From: Bacilli bacterium
Lineage (GTDB): Bacteria; Bacillota_I; Bacilli_A; RFN20; CAG-826
DNA length: 52,976 nt
Assembly (NCBI GenBank): GCA_050874705.1
Contig: JBNMLE010000003.1
Location: 1-52,976, forward strand
Direction: 5' to 3'
In this document: piece by piece, positions 16,618-45,393 of the stretch
How positions within the stretch are numbered: position 1 is the first letter of the stretch
How the letters are laid out: every line of letters starts with the position of its first letter
Program-made: the position numbers and the translations under genes
Notes under the pieces: generated by a model
The model's input: only the letters and a program-made list of their open reading frames with translations
The model's database searches: none
What the model was told of the DNA's origin: nothing

Positions 16618-16668
16618 TTTTGAATAATGTTCACAAAAAACCACTATAAGAATAATGGAGGTTATAAT

Positions 16669-18729
16669 GTGGATATTTTTGCCATTAATAATTTGACACA
16701 AGTTTTCCAAAATGGAGAAAAAGAAAACATCGTTCTCAAAAATCTGTCCTTAAAATTCTCTAAAAATTCTTTTGTTGCTATTTATGGAAAATCTGGATGT
16801 GGCAAATCAACGCTTCTTAATTGCTTAAATGGAATTATCAAACCAACTAAAGGAAGCATTAAATATTTCGGCAAAGACATTAATGAATTATCAAATAAAG
16901 AAAAAAATATTTATTTGAATAAAGAAATAAATATGGTTTTTCAACATTATAACCTCTTTAATGATTTAACATCTATTGATAATGCAATAATTCCTTTGCT
17001 TATACGTGGTGAAAATAAAAAGAAATCATATAAAAAAGCACTTATTTTATTTAAGAGATTCAACCTTGAAAATTGTATTGATAAAAAAACTAAATTTTTA
17101 TCTGGTGGAGAAAAACAAAGAGTGGCTATTATAAGAGCAATATTATCGAATTCAAAAGTGATTCTTTGCGATGAACCAACAGGGGCATTAGATGAAAAAA
17201 ATTCAATCTTAATAATGGACATATTAAAGCAATTATCTAAGCAAAAGTTAATTATTTTTGTTTCTCATAATATTGAACTTGTTAATAAATACGCTGATAG
17301 AAAAATAGAATTGTGCGATGGAGAAATAATAAATGACGAAGCAATAAATGATATAAATAAGAATACTCCAATTTTTATAGAAGAAACCAAAATAAAAAAA
17401 CAACATGTCGTTTCATTATTTATTAAAAATTTATTAAAAAGAAATATAGGAAAAAATGTTCTTGCCTTCACAATTTCAACTTTTGGTTTTCTAGTTGTCC
17501 TTTTATCTATTTCATTCATAAATGGAAACGAATTAAATAAAGAAAATATTATTTATAAAAATGCTGATTCTTTTAATGCTACTTTATCAACTAAAACTTA
17601 TAAAGAAATACCAAACTCATCACTAGTTTTAGAGAAAGATTCTTTGCCAAATGAAGATGAGATAAAAAAGATCAAAGAAGTTTTTCCATCATCATATATT
17701 TGTAACAATTACGACTATTTTCTTCCTACATATAGTACATTTTCTATTAATAATGATTTGTTTAATAATATACAATTTATTCCATTTTATAAAAATAATT
17801 CCTTAGTTGAAAAGAGTTCAATAGAAACAATTAATGATGTAGTTATAAATGAAGAAATGTCGAAAATACTTCAAGAAGATAAAAATGAAATAATTGTTTT
17901 TAGTAAAAGTGAAGTAAAATTGCATACATTTGATAAAGACATGCCTTTAATTAAAGATGATTTTGTTTATAATTTGAAATTAAATGTTAAGCAAACAATA
18001 AAAGAATTTTCTTTTCTTAATGGACCGAAAGTTTATTATTCATATAGTTTGTTTGAGGAGTATTTAAAATCTAGTTATCTTCCCAATATAAGCGAATATA
18101 CAAAAAAAGATATAAACGTTATAGATTATCTAGATAGTTACTGTAAAGACGAAGCGATAAAAAATTATTCTAGAAGAATTTTCTTTTCATCTAAGGATGA
18201 TGTTCGAAACGCTTTTTCTTATATTGAAACAAATAAAACAAATATTTTTATTAATAGCAGTTCTTATGAAATAAAGAATGTATATGTTCAGTATATTGAA
18301 TCTTTTTCAAACGCATTTTTATTTTTTTCTATAATTTGTTTTATTTGTCTAAATCTTATTATTGGGATAACATCATTATCAAATTATGTTGAAAGAAAGA
18401 AAGAAAACGCAATATTAAAAAGTTTTGGATTAAGTGATAGTTCAATAAGAAAAATATATACAATAACAAACATAATAAACACATTCATTTCTTACATATT
18501 TTCTTTTTGTTTATTCTTTCCAGTTACATCTTTATTAAATGAAATAATTTATTCGAATTTTAATATGGAAAATTTAATTGTTTTTCCTTTGAATTCACAA
18601 AATTTATTGCTTTCTTTTTCGCCTCTACTTGTTTTGGGCATTGGAGCAATTGTTTCATATATGTTTGTTTACATACCTCTTTTAATGAGTAAAAAAATTG
18701 ATATCGCGAAAGAATTAAAAGATGAATGA
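16669..18729 (+). CDS. ABC transporter ATPase-permease fusion (MacB/FtsX-like)
   Basis: GKSGCGKS, LSGGEKQR, LCDEPTGALD, C-terminal TMs; GTG at 16669 follows GGAGG RBS (ORF from 16627). Confidence 0.85.
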   Translation: MDIFAINNLTQVFQNGEKENIVLKNLSLKFSKNSFVAIYGKSGCGKSTLLNCLNGIIKPTKGSIKYFGKDINELSNKEKNIYLNKEINMVFQHYNLFNDLTSIDNAIIPLLIRGENKKKSYKKALILFKRFNLENCIDKKTKFLSGGEKQRVAIIRAILSNSKVILCDEPTGALDEKNSILIMDILKQLSKQKLIIFVSHNIELVNKYADRKIELCDGEIINDEAINDINKNTPIFIEETKIKKQHVVSLFIKNLLKRNIGKNVLAFTISTFGFLVVLLSISFINGNELNKENIIYKNADSFNATLSTKTYKEIPNSSLVLEKDSLPNEDEIKKIKEVFPSSYICNNYDYFLPTYSTFSINNDLFNNIQFIPFYKNNSLVEKSSIETINDVVINEEMSKILQEDKNEIIVFSKSEVKLHTFDKDMPLIKDDFVYNLKLNVKQTIKEFSFLNGPKVYYSYSLFEEYLKSSYLPNISEYTKKDINVIDYLDSYCKDEAIKNYSRRIFFSSKDDVRNAFSYIETNKTNIFINSSSYEIKNVYVQYIESFSNAFLFFSIICFICLNLIIGITSLSNYVERKKENAILKSFGLSDSSIRKIYTITNIINTFISYIFSFCLFFPVTSLLNEIIYSNFNMENLIVFPLNSQNLLLSFSPLLVLGIGAIVSYMFVYIPLLMSKKIDIAKELKDE

Positions 18730-21509
18730 AAATCGAAATTAAAAATCTTTTTAAATCATTTGGTCAACAAGAAATTTTTGATAATGTTTCTTTATCATTT
18801 CCTGAGAAAGGTGTTGTTATTATTTGTGGTGATAGTGGTTCAGGAAAATCAACTCTTTTAAATATTATTTCAGGACAAGATTTTGATTATAAAGGTGATG
18901 TGTTTATAGATAACAAAAACATAAAAACATTTTTACAAAACGAAATAGAAAATTTAAGAATTAATAAATTCGGATTTATTTATCAAAATTTTAATTTGTT
19001 AAATTTAGAATCTGTTAAAAGCAATATTATTTTACCTTTAGATTGTTCTTCCTATTTAAGCCAAGATATTAAAAATAGAAGAGTAGCATCAACTTTAGAA
19101 TATGTAAATCTTCCAAATTATGAAGAAAAAACTATTAACAAATTATCAGGTGGAGAAAAACAAAGAACCGCTATTGCAAGAGAAATAATTAAATCTCCAT
19201 CTATTCTTCTATGTGATGAACCAACAGGATCATTAGATAGTAAAAATTCTGAGCTCATTATCTCTTTGTTAAAGAAAATTTCTGATGAAATGCTAGTAAT
19301 TATAGTCACACACGATAAGACATTTTTTAAAGAAGCAAATATTATATATAAACTTTCAAATGCAAAAATTGAATGTATTAAAAACGAAAAGACATTTGCT
19401 ATAAAAGAGAAATTTAAATTAATTGGTGGACATTTTAAAAAAAGAAAGCCACATATTCCTTTAAAGTTTGTTTTTTCTCATAGCGTTAAAAAAATGAAAG
19501 AAAGAAAAGTACGATCATTTTTAACATATACAATGCTCTCTTTTAGCTTGACAGGTATAGGTATTTCTTTGTTATTAGGTCTAACATTAAAAGACAAAAT
19601 AAATAGTTCGATTTCTTCTATAATTGATCGCGATTTAATTGTAATGAAAAATAAGAATAATAATGTATCTTCTTTTTCTAATCCTTACAGCGCCCCAAAA
19701 GGAGAAGTTGATAAAATTTATGAGAATTACAAGGATTTTATTAAAAATGTTGGTGTTTCTTATCAAATAAATTTTGAAGATTTTTTCAAAGATAGAAATG
19801 AAATTTATATAAAAAACAAGACAGATAAATACATTATTAGTTCATTAAGTTCTCGTTCTATAAACGAATATAAATATTATGAAAAAAATGAGGATGAAAT
19901 ACTATATCCTTATTCTATTGATTTCTTAGAAAATGATGAAATTATTCTTGGTTTAAATTATGTTGATATGGCTAATATTTGTTTTACTTTAAAAATACAA
20001 AGAAGCTATTCCTCGCTTGGCGAATATATTAAAACAAATGATTTATTTGTTATTTTAGATGTTAAAAACAGTGAGTGGCAGTATGAAGATGAACAAATAT
20101 TTTCTGTTAAAGCAATTAAGGAAAATAATAATACATGTATTTTTCATAGTTCCACTAATTGGAATGAATTCGTATTTGAAGAAAAAATGCGTTTTCCATC
20201 GGATGACGATAATGAAAAAATTTATCCATGGGAAATGTATAAAATCTATTATTTAAATTCTTATGGCGATCCTAAATTATTTTTAGATAAAGCAATATAC
20301 GACTATTCATTAAAAGATTTTATCTTTGAAAGAGCAAATAACTTTAATTCGCCTTTATTATGCAAAATTGGTGAAGCTTGTGAAGTTAAACGAATATACG
20401 TTTATTATGTTGATAAAGAAATGATTGATATGAATGCTTTTGAAAAAGTTCTAACTACATGCCCAAATATAAAAAACTATTATTTAACATGTGGTTTCTC
20501 ATATCAAGTATTTGAAGAAAGCTTTTTAAGTGGTTTTAGAAACAATTTTTATTTATCTCCAAACAAAGAAGTGCTTGAAATGATTTCTGATTATGAAACA
20601 AAAAACGAAACCGATAAAATTGTAATGCCAGATAATGTTTCAAATGGAAATTTTCTTATTAATTTTAACGATGGCTTTAAGTTTTCTACAATAGTTAAAG
20701 AGATATTATTAGGAAGAGAAGCTAAAAACATTGATGAAGTTTTAATTTCAAAAAAATTAAATCAAAAACTGGGCGATGTTTATGGAAAAAATATTTATGC
20801 CTGTACTCTAAAAAATCAAATTCAAAAAAATGATGGTATTGAAAATGAATATGTCATAAAGAAATTGACGGTTGTAGGAGTGGTAGATGAGGAAAAAGAG
20901 TTTCTTTATCAAGATAATAATTGGCCGATTTCTTTTTTTAGAGATTCGTTAGGCGTTTCCTCTTTTAATTTGATTCCAAACCAGATTGTATTTGAATTTG
21001 AAAATAAAACTGAATCTGAACAAACATTAAGCAAACTTGAAAAAATGTTTTCTACTGTAAAATTCGTTAATCCAAATAATTCAATTACTAAAAGCATTGA
21101 TCAAACGATGAAATATACAAATGTGATACTTTTCTCTTTTGCGTTTGTTGCTTCATGTATTTCTTTTCTTTTGCTAGCGATGGTCGTTTTCTTAAATGTT
21201 ATTGAAAGTAAGAACGAGATAGATTGTTTTAAGTTAATTGGATTAAATGAAAAGAATATAAGAAAAATCTATATTTTCGAAACGCTTTTATATGGCTTAT
21301 ATGCGTTCTTTTTGTCTTCTCTAGAAGTTGTTTTTTTCGATATTGTTTTGTCTAAAGCTATTGGAAGTATTTTCAAAAGTTCAAATAGTTTATCAATAAA
21401 CTTATTCCCAATAGCTTTATTACTATTTTTTGCAATATCATTAACAACCATTGTTGCTTTTATAGTTTGCAAAACATTAATAAAAACAAAGAAGAAAATT
21501 AATCATTAA
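18726..21509 (+). CDS. ABC transporter ATPase-permease fusion (MacB/FtsX-like)
   Basis: GDSGSGKS, LSGGEKQR, LCDEPTGSLD, large extracellular region, C-terminal TMs. Confidence 0.85.
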   Translation: MKIEIKNLFKSFGQQEIFDNVSLSFPEKGVVIICGDSGSGKSTLLNIISGQDFDYKGDVFIDNKNIKTFLQNEIENLRINKFGFIYQNFNLLNLESVKSNIILPLDCSSYLSQDIKNRRVASTLEYVNLPNYEEKTINKLSGGEKQRTAIAREIIKSPSILLCDEPTGSLDSKNSELIISLLKKISDEMLVIIVTHDKTFFKEANIIYKLSNAKIECIKNEKTFAIKEKFKLIGGHFKKRKPHIPLKFVFSHSVKKMKERKVRSFLTYTMLSFSLTGIGISLLLGLTLKDKINSSISSIIDRDLIVMKNKNNNVSSFSNPYSAPKGEVDKIYENYKDFIKNVGVSYQINFEDFFKDRNEIYIKNKTDKYIISSLSSRSINEYKYYEKNEDEILYPYSIDFLENDEIILGLNYVDMANICFTLKIQRSYSSLGEYIKTNDLFVILDVKNSEWQYEDEQIFSVKAIKENNNTCIFHSSTNWNEFVFEEKMRFPSDDDNEKIYPWEMYKIYYLNSYGDPKLFLDKAIYDYSLKDFIFERANNFNSPLLCKIGEACEVKRIYVYYVDKEMIDMNAFEKVLTTCPNIKNYYLTCGFSYQVFEESFLSGFRNNFYLSPNKEVLEMISDYETKNETDKIVMPDNVSNGNFLINFNDGFKFSTIVKEILLGREAKNIDEVLISKKLNQKLGDVYGKNIYACTLKNQIQKNDGIENEYVIKKLTVVGVVDEEKEFLYQDNNWPISFFRDSLGVSSFNLIPNQIVFEFENKTESEQTLSKLEKMFSTVKFVNPNNSITKSIDQTMKYTNVILFSFAFVASCISFLLLAMVVFLNVIESKNEIDCFKLIGLNEKNIRKIYIFETLLYGLYAFFLSSLEVVFFDIVLSKAIGSIFKSSNSLSINLFPIALLLFFAISLTTIVAFIVCKTLIKTKKKINH

Positions 21510-22362
21510 TTGATTCATGCACTCCATCATAAAAGAATTGAACTCCAAGTACAGATGGCCCAGCATGGTATGAATTTGTCGGCGAAGCAGGAGAAAAATA
21601 TACTTTTTTAAATCCTTTGTTAAGTAAATACTCTTTAACCTCTTTTATGGTTTCTTCGTCGCATGTTGAAATATTAATATAGGCCGCAGATAAATCCAAA
21701 TTTTTATATGAATTTAATCTATCTTCGACATATTTTTTAATGCATTTTTGTGAATTTCCACGATATATTTTTCCTATAGTGAAAGCTCCTTCTTTATTTG
21801 TTTCAATTACAGGTCGAAGTTTTAAAAGTTTCGTCGCATAAAATTTTAATGCTGTGCATCTTCCACCTTTATATAGATAATCAAGATCTTTAATTATAAA
21901 TGAAGTTGAAAGATAAGGAATTCTTTCTTCACATTTTTGGCATATCTCTTCAAAACTATAACCTTCCTTATTTAGTTTTATTGCATATAAAACAAGAAGA
22001 GCAGTAGCTCCGCTTGTGCCTCTCGAATCTATTATTCTTATATGTGGATTATTGTTTGATGCAGCAATTGCGTTGCTATAACATCCAGAAAGTTTTGATG
22101 ACATTGTAAAATGTATTAGATAATCATTTTCTTTTAATTGTTTTTCAAAAAAGTTTTGATATTCACCAATATTTGGTGCGGCTGTATGGCACATTATTTT
22201 TGTTTTATTTGTAAACTCAAACAATTCTTGAGTTGAAAATGTATCATCTCTATATGTTTTACCTTCTTTTTCAGTACTAAAATGAATAATAGGGATGTTA
22301 TATTCTTCAATTAATTCTTTTGTTAAGTCCGCTGTGCTTGTTGCGCTAATTAAAATTTTCAT
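21499..22362 (-). CDS. DegV family fatty-acid-binding protein
   Basis: STADL, TAAP, MSSKLSG, IDS, YLYKGGR, HAGP. Confidence 0.9.
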   Translation of the reverse strand: MKILISATSTADLTKELIEEYNIPIIHFSTEKEGKTYRDDTFSTQELFEFTNKTKIMCHTAAPNIGEYQNFFEKQLKENDYLIHFTMSSKLSGCYSNAIAASNNNPHIRIIDSRGTSGATALLVLYAIKLNKEGYSFEEICQKCEERIPYLSTSFIIKDLDYLYKGGRCTALKFYATKLLKLRPVIETNKEGAFTIGKIYRGNSQKCIKKYVEDRLNSYKNLDLSAAYINISTCDEETIKEVKEYLLNKGFKKVYFSPASPTNSYHAGPSVLGVQFFYDGVHESIND

Positions 22363-22472: not shown

Positions 22473-23099
22473 ATGGATATAAAAAAGAATGTAGCAAACA
22501 ACATTGCAAACTTAAGAAAAAAGAATAGGTGGACACAAGCTGAACTTGCAGAAAAAATCAATTATTCTGACAAAGCAGTTTCAAAATGGGAAAGAGGAGA
22601 AGCTGTTCCTGACATTGATACTCTTTATATGTTAGCCAATTTATTTAATGTAAAAATTGATTATTTTGTATATGACGATCACGAAGTTCAAAAAGAAATG
22701 ACTGTTCCAAAAATTGAAGGGTTATTTAAAAAACTAGCGGTTTTATTTCTATTCTCTTTAGCAACTGTACTTATAGCACTATTAATTTATGTCATTGGCG
22801 ATTCACAAAATTGGGATAATAAACCTTATTTATGGATGTCTTTTATTTGGGCTACGCCAATTCTTGCAACGATTACATTTGTGTTTTTCATTATTAATAA
22901 AATATGGTTAGGTTCACTAATTTCTTGTGGAATGATTGTTGTATGTTTGATTGGATGCATTTTTGGTGAATTTCTAATTCATAATATTCTAGGTGGAAAT
23001 GCGTGGATGGTTTGGCTATTTGTTCCAATTATTGTCGGTGCAATTGTTTTGATATTTTTTATGAGAAAAAGTAAAGGACAAATGAGGTTCAAACAATGA
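22473..23099 (+). CDS. XRE-family HTH regulator with membrane domain
   Basis: LRKKNRWTQAELAEKINYSDKAVSKWERG plus about 4 TMs; promoter position favours ATG 22473 (ORF from 22395). Confidence 0.85.
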   Translation: MDIKKNVANNIANLRKKNRWTQAELAEKINYSDKAVSKWERGEAVPDIDTLYMLANLFNVKIDYFVYDDHEVQKEMTVPKIEGLFKKLAVLFLFSLATVLIALLIYVIGDSQNWDNKPYLWMSFIWATPILATITFVFFIINKIWLGSLISCGMIVVCLIGCIFGEFLIHNILGGNAWMVWLFVPIIVGAIVLIFFMRKSKGQMRFKQ

Positions 23100-24601
23100 A
23101 AAATAACAAAAAATTGATTACATGTTTTTTATTTAGTTCAAGTCTACTTTTTTCATGTTCTTTATTTAATAATAATTTGGAAAATAGATCAGTTCCTGAT
23201 ATTGATGATGTAAATGGAGAAAGCGGTGAAGGATATTCAAAAATTAATTCCACATCTTTTTCGATGAATGATGTTTATGATTTAAACAACATGAAGTGTC
23301 TTCCATCAATTGGAGATTCATCAATATTAGTTGTGCCCGTGGAAACTAGCGACGCCCCTAAGTGGAACGAAACTATGTTAAATAATTTAAATTTGGCTTT
23401 TTTTGGAAATAGTGAAGAAACAGGTTGGGAATCAGTTTCTTCTTTTTATAAAAAAAGTAGCTATGGGAAACTAAATATTTCCGGTGAAATTGCTCCAACT
23501 TTAAAATTGAATTATACAACATCCACTTTAGCGGACGCTTATGTAGATACAAATGGTGAAAAATCACCTTATTTAATTGCAATAGATTCATTTGAAAAAA
23601 ATGTAACTTATGATTCTTATAGGAAAGAATTTGACAAAGATAAAGATGGATATGTTGATTCAATTGCTTTTATTTATTCAAACGCAATTGATTCTGAAAA
23701 TGGATATTGGGCAGTTACATCTTGGGTTAATTCAAATGCAAACTTTTCCCTTCCGAATACAAATGCATTTATGTGGGCATCTTACAATTTCATAAGCGGA
23801 AGTCAAAAACATAATCGCATTTATCCTTATGCTGCTTACGGAAATTTAGTTGATGCTCACACAATTATTCATGAGACCGGTCATCTTTTAGGACTCGACG
23901 ACTATTACTGTTATGATGAAGATGGTTGGGATCCTAGCGGAGCTATTGAAATGCACGCAAACAATGTTGGTGATGAATCAATTTATTCTAAATTTCAACT
24001 TGGATGGGTAAATCCTATTTATGTAAAAACTGACGATTCCGTCACATTAACTTTAAGAACATCATCAAAATATCCTGATGCAGTTTTAATAAATGACTTT
24101 TGGAATAATTCGTCTTGTGATGAATATTTGTTAATCGAATATTATTCTCCTGATATTTTAAATAACAAAGACGCAATTGATCCATATCCGGGAAATGGAT
24201 TTAGGATATATACAACTAGTGGTTTTCGCATTTACCATGTTGATGCAAGAATAGTTGAACTTACTCCTCGTGGGACAATGATTGACTATAGCGATAAACT
24301 TGAAAGCGGAAAGAATTATTTTGTCGGGGCATCGAATTCTGCATCTTTGTCTTATTTAAAAACACACCAAGATGATTTTAAATTACTTCATTTAATGGAA
24401 GCTGGTGGAGTAAACACTTTTAAAAGAAGAGGTGGAAACGCATCGAATAAAACTTTATTTAAAAAGAATGATATATTTGAACCTTCAAAAGAATTCTTTT
24501 ATAATAATAATAAATTTAATAGTGGTGAAGATATTGGGTATAAGATTTTCATAAACGATAGTTCTGATTTTCAAGGAACTTTAACTATACAAAAAAATTA
24601 A
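23096..24601 (+). CDS. M6-family (immune inhibitor A-like) zinc metalloprotease lipoprotein
   Basis: Signal ending LLFSC, SYGKL motif, HETGHLLGLDDYY. Confidence 0.8.
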   Translation: MKNNKKLITCFLFSSSLLFSCSLFNNNLENRSVPDIDDVNGESGEGYSKINSTSFSMNDVYDLNNMKCLPSIGDSSILVVPVETSDAPKWNETMLNNLNLAFFGNSEETGWESVSSFYKKSSYGKLNISGEIAPTLKLNYTTSTLADAYVDTNGEKSPYLIAIDSFEKNVTYDSYRKEFDKDKDGYVDSIAFIYSNAIDSENGYWAVTSWVNSNANFSLPNTNAFMWASYNFISGSQKHNRIYPYAAYGNLVDAHTIIHETGHLLGLDDYYCYDEDGWDPSGAIEMHANNVGDESIYSKFQLGWVNPIYVKTDDSVTLTLRTSSKYPDAVLINDFWNNSSCDEYLLIEYYSPDILNNKDAIDPYPGNGFRIYTTSGFRIYHVDARIVELTPRGTMIDYSDKLESGKNYFVGASNSASLSYLKTHQDDFKLLHLMEAGGVNTFKRRGGNASNKTLFKKNDIFEPSKEFFYNNNKFNSGEDIGYKIFINDSSDFQGTLTIQKN

Positions 24602-24916: not shown

Positions 24917-25594
24917 ATGAATAGTATGGAAAAGGTAAGAACTATTTTACTTTCAAGAAGCATGTATGATGATAACGATAAAGAAGCAGACATGCTAAGA
25001 GAATATTTAAAGAAAAGCAAGACATTGCTAATTAATGTTATGTCTTCTCCTGGCGCAGGGAAAACAACAACCCTTATTGCTTTGATTAATAAATTATCCA
25101 CTAACTATCGTGTTGGAGTTATGGAAGCGGATATTGATAGCGATGTAGACGCTAATAAAATCGCGAAATCAACAAACGCTAAGTCAATTCAACTTCATAC
25201 TGGTGGCATGTGCCATCTAGATGCTGGAATGACTAGAAGAGGACTAGATGAATTAAATATTGATGATTTAGATATTGTCTTTTTAGAAAATGTTGGAAAT
25301 TTGGTTTGCCCTGCTGAATTTGATACTGGTTCACTAATGAATATGATGATTTTATCTATTCCAGAAGGCGATGATAAACCTCTTAAATATCCTTTAATAT
25401 TTGAAAAATCAGATCTTGTAGTTATTAACAAAATTGATACATTGCCATTTTTTGATTTTTCATTAGAAAAATGCAAAGAATATATATATTCTCGCAATAA
25501 AAGTGCTACAATAATTTCAATCTCTGCTAAAAATGGAGAAGGAATAGATGATTTGGCTAATTATATAACCAAAAAACTCAAGGAGATAATATAA
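24917..25594 (+). CDS. hypB: Nickel-insertion GTPase HypB (copy 1)
   Basis: SSPGAGKTT, TGGMCHLDA, ENVGNLVCPAEFD, EGDDKPLKYP, NKID; start could be 24926. Confidence 0.93.
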   Translation: MNSMEKVRTILLSRSMYDDNDKEADMLREYLKKSKTLLINVMSSPGAGKTTTLIALINKLSTNYRVGVMEADIDSDVDANKIAKSTNAKSIQLHTGGMCHLDAGMTRRGLDELNIDDLDIVFLENVGNLVCPAEFDTGSLMNMMILSIPEGDDKPLKYPLIFEKSDLVVINKIDTLPFFDFSLEKCKEYIYSRNKSATIISISAKNGEGIDDLANYITKKLKEII

Positions 25595-25604
25595 GGAGAA
25601 CTTT

Positions 25605-28466
25605 ATGCCAGAGCAAAATAAGAAAATTATTTCTAAGTATCAAGGAGAAAAAGACCTAGACAAAGCATATGCTGAGTTAGGAAAAAAGATTACTGATGTC
25701 GTTCCTCACAAACTAAAAGGCGTCACTTCAAATGATCCAGAATACTGGGGTTTAAAAGAAGTCTTAACACCTGAAATGGTTGCGTTAGGAAACAAGATGA
25801 AACTTCGCAAATATTATACTTTTGAAGAATTAATGGAAATGAACAAAGACATGGAACCATGCGATCTTCAAAAATTGCTTGATGAGATGTCAATTATCGG
25901 CATTATCGAATATGATTATGGTGACAATTACGATCATAATGGAGAATTGAAAGACAAACCTAGAATTAAACGTTATCGTTTACCTTATTTTGTTCCAGGT
26001 AGTGCTGAATTATTTAATTCAACTGTTGATAGAATTGAAAAAAATCCTGCTGTTGCTTCTTTCTTTGAAAGAATGACTTTTATTCCACTTGCAGGTGTTA
26101 CTCAAATGCTTCCACCTGGTGGAGATGGTGTTGGAATGCATGTTATTCCAGTTGAAAAAGCTATTAATTCCAAATCCGAGTCAGTTGATTTAGAGCACAT
26201 TTCTTATTGGCTTAAAAAATACGAAGGTCATATTTCCGCAGGTATATGCTCTTGCCGTGCAAGTAGAGCTTTCTTAGGTGATGGCTGTTCTGATGATAAC
26301 CAAGATTGGTGTATTCAACTTGGTGATATGGCTGATTATACTGTCGAAACAGGTCGTGCGCATTATATTACAAAAGAACGCGCTCTTGAAATTCTTGAAA
26401 TTTCTGAAAAGAACGGATATGTGCACCAAATCACTAACATTGATGGTGAAAACAAGATTTTTGATATTTGTAACTGCAATGTCAAGATTTGTAACGCTTT
26501 AAGAACTTCTTTATTGTTCAATACTCCATATTTATCAAGGAGTTCATTCACTGCAAAAGTTGATCCAAAAAATTGTGTTGCTTGTGGTAAATGTGTTGAA
26601 TCCTGCCCAGCTGGTGCTGTTAAATTAGGACAAAAGATGTGCCATAAAAATGGTAAACCAGTCACTTATCCACATGCCCCATTACCAGATAACAATATTT
26701 GGGGTCCATATGCTTGGGATGAAGAATATCGTGATACTGCTCGTATGTCTAATACATATGAAAGTGGAAGTGCACCATGTAAAGCTGCATGTCCAGCACA
26801 TGTCCCTGTCCAAGCTTATTTAAAACTTGCTCATGATGGCAAATATAAAGAAGCACTTGCAATGATTAAAACAGAAAACCCATTCCCAGCGGTATGTGGT
26901 CGTATTTGTAATAAACGTTGTGAAGACGCTTGTACTCGTGGAGATATAGATGCACCTGTATCAATTGATGCAGTTAAGAAATATGTTGCTGACTTAGATT
27001 TAAATGCAAAAGATCGCTATATTCCTGAAAAATTAATACAATCAGCAGTTCTTGATCATTTCGATGAAAAGATTGCTATTATCGGGGCTGGTCCAGCAGG
27101 TTTAAGTGCTGCATATTATTTAGCATTAATGGGTTATAAACCAACAGTATTTGAAAAGAATCAAAGACCTGGTGGTATGTTAATGTATGGTATTCCAACA
27201 TATAAACTTGAAAAAGATGTTATCGATGCTGAAATAGAAGTTATTAAACAACTAGGTGTTGAAATTAAATGTGGTGTAAATGTTGGTGAAGATATTTCAA
27301 TCGACGAACTCAAAAAACAAGGATACAAAGCCTTCTATATCGCAATTGGATGCCAAGGTGGTAGACGTCCAGGTATTAAAAACGATGATGCAATCGGAAC
27401 TGAAATTGCTGTTGAATATTTGCATAATTCATTCGAAAAACGTGAACAATTTAATGGCGATGTCGTTGTTATCGGTGGTGGTAATGTCGCTATCGACTGC
27501 GCTCGTAATGCTCACCGTTTAGGCGCTAAATCCGTTTCAATGTTCTCTCTTGAAGATCGTGATTCAATGCCTGCAAGCAAAGAAGAAATCAAAGAAACAC
27601 TTGAAGAAAATGTTTCTATTAATAACTCTTGGGGCCCAAAAGAAGTTATCGTTGATGAAAACAATCATGTAACTGCTATTGTTCTTAAAAAATGCTTAAG
27701 AACTATTGATCCTGAAACAAAGAAATTCTCACCTTTATATGATGAAAATGAAACAATGACTGTAGCTGCAGACAAAATTGTGTTCGCTATTGGTCAAACT
27801 ATCAATTGGGGTAAATTGCTTGAAAACACTAAAGTTACATTCTGGCATGGTAATTATCCAATTGCTGATAAACTTACATATCAAACTGCTGATGAAGATA
27901 TATTTGTTGGTGGTGATGTATTTACTGGACCACGCTTTGTTATCGACGCTATTGCAGCGGGTCACGAAGCTGCTGAAAGCTTGCATCGTCATGTAAGACC
28001 TCTTGCTTCATTAACAATTGGTAGAGATCGTCGTCGTTTTGTCACTCTTGATAAGAAAGATCTTCAATATCCTTCTTACGATACAATGGGTAGACAAGAA
28101 GCTGGCATGGATGAATCAATCGATTACAAGAATTCTTTCAAAGACGCTCATAAAGACTTAACCGAAGAACAAGTCCATATCGAAACAGGACGTTGCCTCT
28201 CTTGTGGTGTATCATATGTCGATCCTAATAAATGTATTGGATGCGGTATTTGTACAACTAGATGTAAATTTGACGCAATTCATCTTGTGAGAGATCGCCC
28301 AGATTGCACAAAAATGGTTGCAGGTGAAGAAAAAATTAAATACATGCTTCCATATGTAATCAAACGTGGATTCAAGATTCTCGGTCACTCTGGCAGTAAA
28401 GAAGCTAGAGAACTTGCTAAAAAACGTCGTGCATATAAAAAAGCACAAAAGGCTAATAAAAAATAA
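25605..28466 (+). CDS. Large FAD/NAD(P)-dependent Fe-S oxidoreductase (GltD-like core, ferredoxin motifs, Cys-rich N-terminal domain)
   Basis: CVACGKCVESCP; PCKAACP...CGRICNKRCEDAC; GAGPAG; GGGNVAIDCA; GGD; RCLSC; CIGCGICTTRC. Confidence 0.88.
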   Translation: MPEQNKKIISKYQGEKDLDKAYAELGKKITDVVPHKLKGVTSNDPEYWGLKEVLTPEMVALGNKMKLRKYYTFEELMEMNKDMEPCDLQKLLDEMSIIGIIEYDYGDNYDHNGELKDKPRIKRYRLPYFVPGSAELFNSTVDRIEKNPAVASFFERMTFIPLAGVTQMLPPGGDGVGMHVIPVEKAINSKSESVDLEHISYWLKKYEGHISAGICSCRASRAFLGDGCSDDNQDWCIQLGDMADYTVETGRAHYITKERALEILEISEKNGYVHQITNIDGENKIFDICNCNVKICNALRTSLLFNTPYLSRSSFTAKVDPKNCVACGKCVESCPAGAVKLGQKMCHKNGKPVTYPHAPLPDNNIWGPYAWDEEYRDTARMSNTYESGSAPCKAACPAHVPVQAYLKLAHDGKYKEALAMIKTENPFPAVCGRICNKRCEDACTRGDIDAPVSIDAVKKYVADLDLNAKDRYIPEKLIQSAVLDHFDEKIAIIGAGPAGLSAAYYLALMGYKPTVFEKNQRPGGMLMYGIPTYKLEKDVIDAEIEVIKQLGVEIKCGVNVGEDISIDELKKQGYKAFYIAIGCQGGRRPGIKNDDAIGTEIAVEYLHNSFEKREQFNGDVVVIGGGNVAIDCARNAHRLGAKSVSMFSLEDRDSMPASKEEIKETLEENVSINNSWGPKEVIVDENNHVTAIVLKKCLRTIDPETKKFSPLYDENETMTVAADKIVFAIGQTINWGKLLENTKVTFWHGNYPIADKLTYQTADEDIFVGGDVFTGPRFVIDAIAAGHEAAESLHRHVRPLASLTIGRDRRRFVTLDKKDLQYPSYDTMGRQEAGMDESIDYKNSFKDAHKDLTEEQVHIETGRCLSCGVSYVDPNKCIGCGICTTRCKFDAIHLVRDRPDCTKMVAGEEKIKYMLPYVIKRGFKILGHSGSKEARELAKKRRAYKKAQKANKK

Positions 28467-28468
28467 TT

Positions 28469-28813
28469 ATGCATGAATTAGGCATAGTTGTTCATGTCAT
28501 TGATCAAATCGAAAAAATTGCTGAAGAAAATAAAGTAAACAAAGTTGTAAAACTTACTTTAGAAATAGGTGAAGTTTCAACAATTGTTCCTTCTTATTTC
28601 AGAGATTGCTTTGAGTGGTCAAAGAAGAAAACAAAATACATGAAAGATTGCCAACTAGAATTAATTATTATTGAAGGCAAATCTTATTGTAAAAATTGTA
28701 AAAAAACTTATAAAACAACTGAATATGCAAAAGAATGTCCTTATTGCCATAGTTTAGATACATATTTAATTACTGGCAATGAAGCAAATATAAAAGATAT
28801 TCAAGTAATCTAA
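28469..28813 (+). CDS. hypA: Nickel metallochaperone HypA
   Basis: N-terminal MHE, IGEVS, CKNC...CPYC zinc site. Confidence 0.93.
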   Translation: MHELGIVVHVIDQIEKIAEENKVNKVVKLTLEIGEVSTIVPSYFRDCFEWSKKKTKYMKDCQLELIIIEGKSYCKNCKKTYKTTEYAKECPYCHSLDTYLITGNEANIKDIQVI

Positions 28814-28838
28814 AAAGAGAGCAAGTGCTCTCTTTTTT
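28812..28838 (+). terminator. Terminator of hypB-oxidoreductase-hypA operon
   Basis: AAAAAGAGAGCA-AG-TGCTCTCTTTTT. Confidence 0.8.
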
Positions 28839-28853
28839 CAATTATTTTGCAAT

Positions 28854-28879
28854 AAAAAAGCAAGAGTTAATCTTGCTTT
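28854..28879 (-). terminator. Terminator of isomerase gene
   Basis: AAAGCAAGA-GTTAA-TCTTGCTTT with A run on the left (U tail on the minus strand). Confidence 0.75.
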
Positions 28880-28895
28880 ATTAATAATTAAATGA

Positions 28896-30269
28896 TTAGA
28901 AGAATCTACCGATTAAATCACGGCTATATTCGACTGTTTCTTCCATATCGCCGAATGCCATAACTTCACCAGCATAGAAGGTGTTGTTTTCACCTTGCAT
29001 ACCTTCAACCTTATCATACCATCCATCAGCGTAATCTTTTGAAGAAACGTGTGGGAAGTAATACCAGTCATCGATACGTTCAACTTTTTCAACTGGACGT
29101 TTGCAGATTTCCATATCTTTTAATGTTGTTTCTTTAGCAACTTCGAATGGAACATCTTCCATACCTTCGTGATTGCGGAGTGTGAATGTAACGAGTGGTT
29201 GATCTAAATCTTCTGGCCAACGATGATAGAAAACCATTAAGTGTCCTCTTGTTTCGTTTGTCATATTTTCGAAGAAGTAGTATGAGATATCAGGTGTATT
29301 TCCTTCAGCAGTGCGAACCGCCATTGTGAAATATTCTTTATGAACAATTTTTGAGAATAATTCTTTTTCTTTTTCGTTTGGATCACCATATTTGAGGAAT
29401 AATTCAAGTGGTGTACAAATAATTAATTTATCGAATACTTCAACTTTTCCATTTACTGTGATGTAAACTTTGCCGTCTTTTCTTTCAACTTTTGTAACTT
29501 CGCTATTTAATAATGCTGGATGTTTAAGATGGCTATTAACACCTTCCCAAATGGATTGAGTACCATTTTTCCATGTCCAGAGCTTACCTGTTGAAAGGAA
29601 TTGCTTTACTGTAAATGCATCCAAATATTTTAAAACATAAGCTGCAGGAATTTCATCGAAATAACCATAACCAAATGATGTGAATGGTCCTTTCCAAACT
29701 GTTGTAGCGGCTTCACATTTGTTAAGTTTAAGGAATTCACTAAATGGCATGCACAAATCCTTAAGATTTGGGTTTTCGCCTTCAATATGTGCAAGTTTCA
29801 TTTTTGGTGATGGGCAAAGACCTTCATATCTTCCTTGTGCAACGCCTCTATGACCATTGACGTCATATCCTTTATATTTGGTGTCAAGAAGTCTTGATAA
29901 TTTGTTAAGTTTCATAAGCATATTTAACTTAACATGTAGTGGACGTTTTACTTCTTTTCCATCAACAGTCATAAATTTACGACCCATCTTAGGACCATCT
30001 AAGTGTGATGCGCCACCGAATTCTTCACATTCACGGACTGCGAAATAAGTATCACAACCCATAACAGCGCCCATTTCAATAGTCTTATCAACCCATTCGC
30101 CATTTGCTGTTTTTACTTTCATTAATGGTGAAAATGCTTTGCCACCAACGCGGTTTGATTTTTCGTAGATGACATAATTGTTGTATCCTTTTTTCTCAAG
30201 ATACATAGCTGCTGACGTTCCGGCTGGACCGCCACCAATGATGCAGATTCTTTGATTTAAATCCTTCAT
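28896..30269 (-). CDS. FAD-dependent polyunsaturated fatty-acid (linoleate) isomerase homologue, PAI-like
   Basis: GGGPAG FAD motif; EMGAVMG, PFTSFGYGYFDEIPAAYVLKYLD, HLMVFYHRW, WYYFPHVSSKDYADGWYDKVEGMQG closely match C. acnes PAI as recalled. Confidence 0.82.
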   Translation of the reverse strand: MKDLNQRICIIGGGPAGTSAAMYLEKKGYNNYVIYEKSNRVGGKAFSPLMKVKTANGEWVDKTIEMGAVMGCDTYFAVRECEEFGGASHLDGPKMGRKFMTVDGKEVKRPLHVKLNMLMKLNKLSRLLDTKYKGYDVNGHRGVAQGRYEGLCPSPKMKLAHIEGENPNLKDLCMPFSEFLKLNKCEAATTVWKGPFTSFGYGYFDEIPAAYVLKYLDAFTVKQFLSTGKLWTWKNGTQSIWEGVNSHLKHPALLNSEVTKVERKDGKVYITVNGKVEVFDKLIICTPLELFLKYGDPNEKEKELFSKIVHKEYFTMAVRTAEGNTPDISYYFFENMTNETRGHLMVFYHRWPEDLDQPLVTFTLRNHEGMEDVPFEVAKETTLKDMEICKRPVEKVERIDDWYYFPHVSSKDYADGWYDKVEGMQGENNTFYAGEVMAFGDMEETVEYSRDLIGRFF

Positions 30270-30390: not shown

Positions 30391-31062
30391 TTATTTTTCA
30401 ATATATTCTTTAATTTGATTTTCTAAATAAGTAGTCAATTCATCGATGCCTTCACCATTTTTAGCAGAAGTGACAAAAAGTGGGATATTTTTGTTACGAA
30501 TTCTAATATTAGATTTTGCTCGTTCAATATCAAAATCAAATAGGTCTTTAACATCAGCTTTTGTAATAGCAATTAAATCAGCTACTTCAAACATAAGAGG
30601 ATATTTTAAAGGCTTATCGTCGCCTTCGTTTGTAGAAAGAAGAACGAGATTTTTTGTAGCACCAGTATCAAATTCAGCAGGGCAGACTAAATTGCCAATG
30701 TTTTCAAGAATGACAACATCTAAATCGTCAACTCCAAGAGCGATAAGAGCTTCTCGAGACATTTGGCAAGTTATATGACACGCCCCCATAGTGTGCATTT
30801 GAATTGTTTTGACACCTAGACTATTTATCGTTTTAGCGTCTACATCGCTATCAATATCTGCTTCAATAACTCCAATTCTATATTTACTTTTCAATTTATT
30901 GATTAAAGAAGTAAGAAGGGTTGTTTTCCCGCTTCCTGGTGAAGACATAACATTTAAATAAAACACATGTTTGTTTTTTAAATTTTCTCGTATATCTTTT
31001 GCTTCTTTGTTATTTCTTGAGATTATATCTTCTTTGATTTCTACAATTTTAATATCGTTCAT
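30391..31062 (-). CDS. hypB: Nickel-insertion GTPase HypB (copy 2)
   Basis: SSPGSGKTT, TMGACHIT, ENIGNLVCPAEFD, EGDDKPLKYP, TKAD. Confidence 0.92.
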   Translation of the reverse strand: MNDIKIVEIKEDIISRNNKEAKDIRENLKNKHVFYLNVMSSPGSGKTTLLTSLINKLKSKYRIGVIEADIDSDVDAKTINSLGVKTIQMHTMGACHITCQMSREALIALGVDDLDVVILENIGNLVCPAEFDTGATKNLVLLSTNEGDDKPLKYPLMFEVADLIAITKADVKDLFDFDIERAKSNIRIRNKNIPLFVTSAKNGEGIDELTTYLENQIKEYIEK

Positions 31063-40587: not shown

Positions 40588-40661
40588 CGGCTGGGGCGAC
40601 TGGGTTCGAAACAGTGCTCATGGGTTCAGAGCCCACTGCCTTACCACTTGGCTACGCCCCA
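40588..40661 (-). tRNA. tRNA-Gln(CTG), degenerate (possible pseudogene)
   Basis: Cloverleaf TGGGGCG/CGCCCCA, anticodon loop CTCTGAA; T53:C61 mismatch; ends GCCG rather than CCA. Confidence 0.8.
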
Positions 40662-40687
40662 AAATAAAAGGCGGCGTTATTGGTAAA

Positions 40688-40776
40688 TGGTGCCCGGGAC
40701 AGGACTTGAACCGGTATGGGATTTGATTCCCGAGGGATTTTAAGTCCCTTGCGTCTACCAATTTCGCCACCTGGGC
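40688..40776 (-). tRNA. tRNA-Leu(TAA)
   Basis: Long variable arm, loop CTTAAAA, ACCA end; two stem mismatches. Confidence 0.92.
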
Positions 40777-40784
40777 ATTTAAGA

Positions 40785-40861
40785 TGGTCTCCCGTAGACG
40801 ATTTGAACGTCCGACCCCTTGATTAAAAGTCGAGTGCTCTAGCCAGCTGAGCTAACGGGAG
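40785..40861 (-). tRNA. tRNA-Lys(TTT)
   Basis: Acceptor CTCCCGT/ACGGGAG, loop CTTTTAA, ACCA end. Confidence 0.92.
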
Positions 40862-40982
40862 ATCTTACAATTCAATTTGAATTGCTTTGATATTATTACA
40901 CATTGTAAATGCATTTGCTACTATTTTTTTAAAAAATATTAAAATATTGTATTATCATCATAAATTCATTATTTATTTTAAT

Positions 40983-41005
40983 AAAAATAAAACGCCCGAA
41001 GGCGT
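40983..41005 (-). terminator. Terminator of tRNA Val-Tyr-Gln operon
   Basis: ACGCC-TTCG-GGCGT-TTTATTTTT on the minus strand. Confidence 0.75.
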
Positions 41006-41018
41006 AAATATTTCGAGT

Positions 41019-41094
41019 TGGTTGGGGTGGCTGGGATCGAACCAGCGAAGTGACAGAGTCAAAGTCTGTTGCCTTACCGCTTGGCTACACCCCA
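41019..41094 (-). tRNA. tRNA-Gln(TTG)
   Basis: TGGGGTG/CACCCCA, loop CTTTGAC, CCA end. Confidence 0.96.
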
Positions 41095-41098
41095 AGAG

Positions 41099-41182
41099 TG
41101 GTGGAGAAAGGTGGATTTGAACCACCGAACCCGAAGGAACTGATTTACAGTCAGCCGCGTTTGGCCACTTCGCTATTTCTCC
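41099..41182 (-). tRNA. tRNA-Tyr(GTA)
   Basis: Loop CTGTAAA, long variable arm, CCA end. Confidence 0.97.
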
Positions 41183-41203
41183 AAGACTTAGCACACATAT
41201 TAA

Positions 41204-41279
41204 TGGTGGATGTTAAGAGGCTCGAACTCCTGACCCCCGCCGTGTAAAGGCGATGCTCTCCCAACTGAGCTAAACATCC
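41204..41279 (-). tRNA. tRNA-Val(TAC)
   Basis: GGATGTT/AACATCC, loop TTTACAC, CCA end. Confidence 0.97.
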
Positions 41280-45308: not shown

Positions 45309-45393
45309 TGGTGCAGCGAATGAGAATCGAACTCACACGGATTGCTCCATACGCCCCTCAAACGTACGCGTCTACCAGTTCCGCCATCGCTGC
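45309..45393 (-). tRNA. tRNA-Leu(GAG)
   Basis: GCAGCGA/TCGCTGC, loop TTGAGGG, long variable arm, CCA end. Confidence 0.95.

Follow-up and report, generated by a model that had tools for sequence, protein, structure and literature searches.

The question raised by the DNA stretch described here is what a homologue of the polyenoic fatty acid isomerase (PAI) of Cutibacterium acnes does in a Bacilli bacterium, and whether conjugated linoleic acid (CLA) would be the end product of its activity or an intermediate. The stretch, referred to as the window, comprises 52,976 nucleotides (assembly GCA_050874705.1, contig JBNMLE010000003.1, positions 1–52,976; GTDB lineage Bacillota_I, Bacilli_A, RFN20, CAG-826). 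A previous annotation made from the letters of the window alone (the sequence-only reading) proposed that one of its genes encodes a PAI-type linoleate isomerase and that the lineage may be an unrecognised producer of CLA. What is new here is the gene context, which suggests that a clade of the PAI family is partnered with an IsrA-like reductase served by the nickel chaperones HypA and HypB, and which points to a two-step biohydrogenation module.

A phmmer search against all PDB chains identified chain A of the C. acnes PAI structure (PDB: 2b9w, 424 residues) as the top match of the isomerase open reading frame (ORF), with an E-value of 2.5e-119 and a score of 402 bits. The match consists of two stretches, in which residues 5–141 of the query are aligned to residues 6–134 of the chain and residues 170–457 to residues 139–423, and which together span PAI residues 6–423. 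The second-best PDB match has an E-value of 1.8e-05 and covers little beyond a short segment. Matches to the Pfam families PF01593 (43.3 bits) and PF13450 place the protein in the flavin amine-oxidase superfamily, and none of the NCBIfam models scored above its own cut-off for this ORF. The FAD-binding Rossmann motif GxGxxG is present as GGGPAG at residues 12–17. An AlphaFold model, built from a 19-sequence alignment, has a predicted local distance difference test score (pLDDT) of 93.4 and a predicted template modelling score (pTM) of 0.91. Its best structural match is again 2b9w, with a template modelling (TM) score of 0.95 when normalised to the target and 0.88 when normalised to the query, a root-mean-square deviation of 2.3, and 44% identity across the 458 columns of the structural alignment; the runner-up is CpaO with a TM score of 0.74. 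The window ORF is thus confirmed as a real, close relative of C. acnes PAI in full-length sequence and predicted fold, in agreement with the end-to-end homology proposed before. The gene is present in one copy in the host genome.

The protein resembles PAI also in its predicted substrate pocket. In the phmmer alignment, the methionine of the GAVMG motif, the arginine of DGPKMGR, the second phenylalanine of FTSFGY, and the phenylalanine of KQF correspond to Met62, Arg88, Phe168, and Phe193 of PAI and are identical to them, as the sequence-only reading had anticipated. In PAI, Arg88 and Phe193 are reported to form a gate for the substrate carboxylate and Phe168 to have a pocket role, in papers of 2006 and 2009. 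Among the 117 proteins at least 50% identical to the window protein, the equivalents of Arg88, Phe193, Met62, and Phe168 are kept in 114, 116, 113, and 115 sequences, respectively, as opposed to 23, 22, 13, and 49 of the 111 distant relatives with less than 45% identity. The tryptophans of LWTW and the tryptophan of GWY are among the further residues that never vary in the close set and are uncommon in the distant one. In this comparison, the four pocket equivalents are signatures of a clade of PAI-family proteins that we call long-form. The window isomerase and PAI are therefore alike in full-length homology, fold, Rossmann motif, and four pocket residues, and differ by two extra beta-hairpins (9 and net 24 residues), with 44% identity in their structural alignment. 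In addition, the window isomerase is set in a cluster of redox and nickel-chaperone genes; the comparison with PAI was made at the level of the protein.

The cluster contains a gene for an iron–sulfur flavoprotein resembling IsrA, one gene for HypA, and two for HypB (Table 1). Linkage of the isomerase to these genes was analysed in 64 loci encoding an isomerase at least 65% identical to that of the window, after locus L038, which had no full-length ORF match, had been dropped. An IsrA-like gene is present in 34 of the 64 loci, on the same strand as the isomerase gene in 33 and within 1.5 kb of it in 32. In the subset of 43 loci flanked by 4.5 kb of sequence or more on either side, 25 contain an IsrA-like gene, 24 hypA, 17 at least one hypB, and 11 two hypB genes; the placement of a hypB gene upstream of the isomerase gene, as in the window, is common to these 11 loci. 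Many loci have the co-directional order HypB, isomerase, HypB, flavoprotein, HypA (e.g. L018–L023, L032, L040, and L076), and others the order isomerase, flavoprotein, HypA with gaps of 14–23 bp (e.g. L024, L025, L029, L030, L033, L036, and L039). The isomerase gene lies upstream of the IsrA-like gene in Clostridia and Atopobiaceae loci. In loci L013 and L015, both from the same genus as the window, the flavoprotein and hypA genes come first and are followed by two small ORFs and the isomerase gene, and a convergent arrangement is common to the window, genome G013, and the metagenome-assembled genome (MAG) UBA8580. The pairing of the isomerase with the IsrA-like gene persists through three gene orders and across phyla. 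In the 15 loci with an isomerase below 65% identity, an IsrA-like gene was found in three, 3–4 kb downstream.

The two genes also co-occur when they are not adjacent. A full-length IsrA-like gene is present in 17 of the 18 same-genus genomes that carry the isomerase, and the sole exception, G027, is a 45% complete genome. All five genomes examined among those with an unlinked isomerase encode a full-length IsrA-like homologue elsewhere (46–76% identity).

The flavoprotein has an N-terminal cysteine-rich domain, a ferredoxin motif, an NfnB/GltD-like FAD/NAD(P)H module, and a C-terminal ferredoxin, in this order. Residues 376–896 match the NfnB/GltD-type model PRK12771 (444.6 bits), with sites for a pair of 4Fe-4S clusters, FAD, and NAD(P)H, and the PDB matches are NfnB-like parts of 9bov, 8oh5, 9n5u, and 5jca; an additional ferredoxin motif is located at either end. 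The first approximately 315 residues have no family match in Pfam, which gave Fer4 alone, or in the Atlas, which gave merely clusters named "4Fe-4S binding protein". The model of this domain has a mean pLDDT of 53.5, which drops below 50 around the cysteine site. Motifs of the CxC type are located at residues 215–217 and 289–291, and a CxxCxxCxxxC motif at residue 324. The spacings of 74 residues between the CxC motifs and of 35 residues to the ferredoxin motif are equal to the published IsrA values, and all 34 sequences of the flavoprotein family that were compared keep Cys215, 217, 236, 289, 291, and 296.

IsrA is the putative isoprene reductase of Acetobacterium wieringae ISORED-2, a 901-residue protein induced by isoprene, with an unassigned N-terminal domain of approximately 270 residues, CxC motifs at Cys180–182 and Cys254–256 that form a Cys6 site, which its authors suggest may bind nickel, and a ferredoxin motif from residue 289 (PMC10134865). 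Its operon includes HypA and HypB in a genome without a NiFe hydrogenase or hypCDEF, and 73% and 56% of 988 IsrA homologues are encoded near HypA and HypB, respectively (PMC10134865). A. wieringae strain Y reduces the conjugated dienes isoprene and 1,3-butadiene, and does not reduce ethene, propene, or fumarate (PMC9765523). The window flavoprotein has, as judged by motifs and gene neighbours, the IsrA-type (clade 9) layout with its DPD-II 4Fe-4S pair, the Cys6 site, and the HypA/HypB context. It shares with the isr operon of strains ISORED-2 and Y the domain order, the CxC spacings, and the chaperone association (PMC10134865, PMC9765523), and in both hosts no NiFe hydrogenase or HypD was found. 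The systems differ in that the window flavoprotein is longer (953 residues), the isr operon has a separate ferredoxin gene that the window cluster lacks, and the window encodes one HypA and two HypB proteins, whereas the isr operon encodes two HypA and one HypB. The PAI-like isomerase gene of the window cluster is absent from the accessible description of the isr operon (PMC10134865).

The presence of nickel chaperones raises the question of which enzyme they serve. The host genome comprises 1,130,234 bases in 86 contigs and is 97.07% complete; its size of 1.13 Mb bears out the reduced genome that had been surmised. The assignment to Bacilli is less secure, since the near-identical MAG copy (L016) is labelled no more closely than "Bacillota bacterium". 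The NiFe hydrogenase large subunit, HypD, urease alpha subunit, and LarA were not found in it, although the positive controls worked; HypC, HypE, and HypF were outside these searches. A single Prismane match is a fragment of hybrid-cluster protein. Because these searches were negative and the Prismane match is such a fragment, the host chaperones are without a known client among the enzymes searched, as in A. wieringae. The possibility that HypA and HypB serve a known nickel enzyme was thus rejected for the enzymes covered, to which nickel superoxide dismutase, glyoxalase I, and acetyl-CoA synthase do not belong. Three [FeFe]-hydrogenase large-subunit-like genes are present on contigs C4 and C5 of the host genome (C4:36733–37593 and C5:29353–33309; L097–L099), and hydrogen metabolism is therefore present without a nickel hydrogenase. 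No match to ketoacyl synthase (PF00109) was detected in the 97%-complete host genome, while the control was positive in 14 of 14 reference genomes. The host thus appears unable to make its own fatty acids. It must therefore depend on scavenging for its fatty acids, and this lends a module that converts them a plausible purpose.

From the observed homology, fold, residue conservation, gene linkage, genome co-occurrence, and lack of a known nickel client among the enzymes searched, we infer the substrates of the isomerase and reductase, the regiochemistry, the electron donor, the role of nickel, and any physical interaction. In the proposed pathway, the PAI-family FAD isomerase would turn a free methylene-interrupted cis,cis-diene, that is, a linoleate-type polyunsaturated fatty acid (PUFA), into a conjugated diene. 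The trans-10,cis-12 regiochemistry is suggested by analogy with PAI. The IsrA-like flavoprotein, which probably receives nickel through HypA and the two HypB proteins, would then transfer electrons from NAD(P)H through FAD and its 4Fe-4S chain to one bond of the conjugated diene, and the product would be a monoenoic acid. A diene reductase needing conjugation cannot use the methylene-interrupted diene of linoleic acid, and the isomerase would therefore be needed first. The module may serve to detoxify or tailor scavenged dietary PUFA in a host apparently unable to synthesise fatty acids. The conservation of the linkage to an IsrA-like diene reductase hints at CLA as an intermediate and not necessarily a released end product, which departs from the sequence-only reading. 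We give this two-step pathway, in which CLA is made by the isomerase and reduced by the IsrA-like enzyme, an even chance of being correct.

The substrate class can be approached from a second conserved gene context, which was found in 11 loci (L083, L084, and L086–L094) around the subclade nearest to PAI. Ten of these loci encode an AMP-dependent acyl ligase, nine a CrtI/CRTISO-like flavoprotein, eight an acyl-ACP thioesterase, six a ferredoxin-reductase-type protein, and three an IsrA-like protein. The window contains a gene for a DegV-family fatty-acid-binding protein (21499–22362, minus strand) 2.5 kb upstream of the cluster, and DegV genes also occur near several other loci (L016, L034, L069, and L076). 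The thioesterase and ligase of the second context, the DegV genes, and the retained equivalents of Arg88 and Phe193, with their reported gate role, point to fatty acids as the substrate class. The same three lines of evidence make it very unlikely that the PAI-like enzyme conjugates the bonds of a non-fatty-acid polyene for the reductase, such as a terpenoid, a carotenoid-derived acid, a sorbate-like compound, or another dietary diene, as might be supposed from the CrtI/CRTISO-like flavoprotein of the second context and from the terpenes that the IsrA authors proposed as substrates of homologues (PMC10134865).

The electron-transfer neighbours present in both contexts, IsrA-like in the first and of the ferredoxin-reductase type in the second, could also be read differently. 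The PAI-like protein belongs to the amine-oxidase/CrtI superfamily and might itself be a reductase or saturase, which would deliver hydride to a fatty acid double bond while the IsrA-like protein keeps its FAD reduced, as in some reduced-flavin-dependent enzymes of the CrtI/CRTISO type. However, no reductase-specific feature was identified in the PAI-like protein, and the residues that it has in common with the isomerase PAI are clade signatures. The IsrA family, moreover, has its own cysteine-rich candidate active site and chaperones, and its A. wieringae member is the isoprene-induced protein. A role of the PAI-like protein as the reductase is thus quite improbable.

Several points weigh against the two-step pathway. 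The isomerase and IsrA-like genes of the window belong to two different convergent units, both of which are followed by a terminator-like hairpin, and their co-transcription in the window is therefore impossible. No IsrA-like gene is nearby in 18 of the 43 well-flanked loci, including those of Olsenella. Conversely, an IsrA-like gene is present in 7 of the 18 same-genus genomes that lack the isomerase (the other 11 have neither) and in 5 of the 24 from other families. Because the compared genomes are related to one another, they are not statistically independent, and these counts overstate their independence. Enzyme activity in all long-form members is predicted, and the likeness of the flavoprotein to IsrA (VUZ27132.1) is one of published layout and motif spacing. 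C. acnes PAI acts alone and releases CLA (PMC2885616). The function of IsrA itself is putative, derived from proteomics and reverse transcription PCR, and the protein was never purified (PMC10134865). The listed neighbours of the 988 IsrA homologues are HypA, HypB, TetR, and DUF5692, with no amine-oxidase at the 20% threshold of the main text, the supplement of which might list rarer ones (PMC10134865).

The separately terminated convergent units, the 18 loci lacking an IsrA-like neighbour, and the ability of PAI to act without a partner are, together with the close PAI homology and the retained pocket residues, compatible with a stand-alone isomerase that releases trans-10,cis-12 CLA as its end product, in which case the adjacency of the IsrA-like gene would be synteny without a shared pathway. 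This is unlikely, considering that the pairing turns up in three gene orders and in more than one phylum and that the two genes co-occur in all five of the unlinked genomes examined and in all but one of the same-genus carriers. We favour the pathway in which the isomerase supplies a conjugated intermediate to the IsrA-like enzyme.

The two hairpins that distinguish the window isomerase from PAI were placed by the sequence-only reading after the motifs GGKAFSP (about 9 residues) and NGH (about 24 residues), and both sizes match the alignment with PAI. In the phmmer alignment, PAI has a gap of nine residues after GGKAFSP, and the 28 query residues 142–169 are opposite the four PAI residues 135–138, a net difference of 24 residues after NGH. 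In the AlphaFold model, residues 49–53 and 59–63 form the strands of the first hairpin, and residues 147–152 and 160–165 those of the second, the block of which has pLDDT values of 85–96. The occupancy of the two segments was assessed in an alignment of 228 full-length proteins (400–520 residues) out of 270 fetched. The second segment has 25–28 of its 28 positions filled in all members at least 50% identical to the window protein, and 7–18, typically about 11, in most distant family members, although the distant members P0128 and P0135 do have it. The first segment varies between subclades: seven to nine of its nine positions are filled in most of the window's subclade, with a decrease to one to five in a few members, and only two in a subclade of approximately 450-residue proteins typified by P0097, P0106, and P0124, which is PAI-like around this site. 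The insertions are hence not a novelty of the window lineage. Because the second segment is present in all long-form members examined and in P0128 and P0135, the ancestor probably had it and PAI lost it.

The position of PAI relative to the long-form clade was judged from the bit scores of four clade members against 2b9w, PAI itself being outside the tree. P0106 scores 493 bits, the window protein 402, P0074 385, and P0128 213. PAI looks as if it belongs inside or next to the long-form radiation, nearest to the approximately 450-residue subclade, because P0106 scores highest. It thus looks like a derived form, a member of the radiation without the second hairpin.

The isomerase family is widespread. 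A word-indexed protein search identified 991 homologues with E-values of at most 1e-10, the best 120 of which are 54–100% identical to the window protein, mostly 450–470 residues long, and named merely "FAD-dependent oxidoreductase" or "protoporphyrinogen oxidase". Among representatives at 50% identity, an exhaustive search without profiles returned 159 clusters at E-values of at most 1e-30; a few long-form clusters score approximately 517 bits, followed by a fall to proteins of about 415–430 residues with 27–42% identity. In a scan of one genome per prokaryote species, at least 600 genome stretches matched, and at least 479 of those encode a relative. The best 80 of these relatives come from MAGs and a few isolates. 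They are labelled Oscillospiraceae, Acutalibacteraceae, Christensenella, Ruminococcaceae, Erysipelotrichaceae, Bacilli, Lachnospiraceae, Atopobiaceae/Olsenella, and Coriobacteriales, and a few are Bacteroidota bins, among which loci L026, L028, L035, and L077 may be mis-binned and carry no weight here. The record names of many relatives point to assemblies from rumen or from human, mouse, or chicken gut. Among the cultured carriers are Olsenella sp. KH3B4, in which the isomerase copy is unlinked, Acutalibacteraceae bacterium SVS042, which has the linked isomerase–isrA–hypA arrangement, and Lachnospiraceae bacterium YH-ros2226, which has the second context. The window stretch also occurs in metagenomes of animal gut and manure from four studies, not counting its possible source. 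In these searches, the window protein is not a lineage oddity and belongs to a large long-form clade of gut and rumen anaerobes.

Within the genus of the host, a homologue is present in 18 of 36 other genomes, and none was found in 24 genomes of seven other families of the order. Solely the G013 copy is near-identical to that of the window (99%); the other same-genus copies are 52–61% identical, less than the 70–84% of Clostridia and Atopobiaceae proteins. In a FastTree phylogeny of 94 rows with Shimodaira–Hasegawa-like support, the root of which is unsettled and in which the outgroups P0128 and P0135 are pulled inside by long branches, the window, G013, and UBA8580 form a clade (support 99). 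This is nested in an eight-row group of small Bacillota/Bacilli MAGs (97), and the group in turn in a 66-row clade (100) of mixed Oscillospiraceae, Christensenellaceae, Erysipelotrichaceae, and Actinomycetota. The ten other copies from the genus group apart from these (100), on a different major branch. Because the same-genus copies are split between two major branches, the tree indicates two isomerase lineages in one genus, which may reflect horizontal replacement or an old paralogy with differential loss.

The five genes of the window cluster are arranged as two convergent units (Table 1). The two HypB copies are 53% identical to each other, and HypA scores 76.4 bits against TIGR00100, under the cut-off of 88.1. 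Terminator-like sites are more numerous in the region than in shuffled sequences (7 versus 2.8 ± 1.7), and a promoter scan of the region showed no enrichment (31 sites versus 32.3 in shuffles).

Table 1. Positions in the window of the isomerase gene, its two insertions relative to PAI, and the accompanying genes and hairpins
Feature	Position	Strand	Basis
HypB-type nickel GTPase, 225 aa, first gene of plus-strand unit	24917–25594	+	TIGR00073 223.3 bits (cut-off 121.2); CH...C motif
IsrA-like Fe-S flavoprotein, 953 aa	25605–28466	+	Fer4, Fer4_20, Pyr_redox_2; PRK12771; CxC motifs
HypA nickel metallochaperone, 114 aa	28469–28813	+	PF01155 103.6 bits (cut-off 28.9); MHE start, two CxxC pairs
Terminator-like hairpin 3' of hypA	28812–28837	+	11-pair stem, then T run
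Terminator-like hairpin 3' of isomerase gene	28857–28879	-	9-pair stem, then T run
PAI-family FAD-dependent fatty acid double-bond isomerase homologue, 457 aa	28896–30269	-	ORF, ATG start; PDB 2b9w; PF01593; AlphaFold model
Second insertion relative to PAI, codons 142–169, predicted ordered beta-hairpin	29763–29846	-	28 aa face 4 aa
First insertion relative to PAI, codons 49–57, predicted part of beta-hairpin	30099–30125	-	9-residue gap in PAI
HypB-type nickel GTPase, 223 aa, upstream of isomerase gene, co-directional	30391–31062	-	TIGR00073 hypB 224.9 bits (cut-off 121.2); G-domain CH...C motif

The G+C content of positions 26001–30000, which cover the cluster, is 0.34–0.365, compared with roughly 0.30 in the rest of the window; this fits both acquisition from outside and the mere composition of those genes. 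The plus-strand ORF at 23096–24601 encodes a 501-residue lipoprotein with a lipobox and an HExxH motif, the Atlas neighbours of which are partly Peptidase_M6, and which has no Pfam match at 1e-4. Homologues with 30% identity adjoin the isomerase gene in the same-genus loci L008–L011. This M6-like lipoprotein protease was considered as a member of the cluster and rejected as probably just a syntenic neighbour. Elsewhere in the window, two adjacent large proteins of 700 and 927 residues (16627–21509, plus strand) are both fusions of an ATP-binding cassette (ABC) ATPase with a permease of the FtsX type. On the minus strand, six clustered tRNA genes (Gln, Leu, Lys, Gln, Tyr, and Val) are located at 40589–41279 and a lone tRNA-Leu gene at 45309–45393.

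We know of no firmly established CLA reductase gene. In the open-access papers and bioRxiv, no literature linking a PAI-type isomerase with IsrA or with HypA/HypB was found, and the accessible text of the IsrA paper contains no mention of linoleic acid, rumen, or gut (PMC10134865). Homologues of PAI with at least 40% BLASTp identity in rumen MAGs of Lachnospiraceae, Oscillospiraceae, and unclassified bacteria were previously proposed as trans-10 candidates (PMC10019597). These are of the same homologue type as the window isomerase, and their description, in its accessible part, is based on presence and correlation, without gene context, a reductase partner, or the insertions. The suggestion that the window lineage may be an unrecognised CLA producer is partly supported: the lineage carries a PAI-family protein with the pocket residues characteristic of the clade, and the candidacy of such homologues had already been raised.

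The saturation of PUFA by lactic acid bacteria, which involves CLA-HY, CLA-DH, and CLA-DC, is likewise encoded by clustered genes and leads from linoleic acid through conjugated intermediates to more saturated acids (PMC9241672). It differs from the proposed module in that it uses unrelated families (a hydratase, a short-chain dehydrogenase/reductase, a decarboxylase-like isomerase, and an enone reductase) and hydroxy and oxo intermediates, and lacks a PAI-type flavoenzyme, an Fe-S flavoprotein, and nickel chaperones. CLA-ER is a further enzyme of this lactic-acid-bacterial route.

For the trans-10 biohydrogenation route in the rumen, the isomerase/IsrA-like pair provides concrete gene candidates that can be tested. 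In a study of the rumen trans-10 shift, C. acnes was judged improbable as its principal agent, and the part played by Olsenella and the [Eubacterium] coprostanoligenes group was called unknown (PMC9853040). These groups overlap with the labelled carriers of the isomerase family, which is circumstantial evidence. A far-reaching interpretation, which we regard as doubtful as a whole, takes the five genes for a complete and horizontally mobile module of nickel-dependent biohydrogenation. Its PAI-like enzyme would produce trans-10,cis-12 CLA, and its IsrA-like Ni/Fe-S flavoenzyme would be the CLA reductase that has long been sought and would convert this CLA to trans-10 18:1. The carriers, namely Oscillospirales, Atopobiaceae/Olsenella, Erysipelotrichaceae, and small-genome Bacillota, would then be the missing agents of the rumen trans-10 shift that underlies milk-fat depression, and the IsrA family in general would comprise reductases of unactivated conjugated lipid dienes. 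The proposed pairing would also provide the IsrA family, until now connected with isoprene alone, with a natural and abundant substrate class, and the IsrA-like enzyme would be an added candidate for the short list of nickel enzymes. For the window organism, which appears to be without fatty acid synthesis, the module suggests how scavenged PUFA may become usable.

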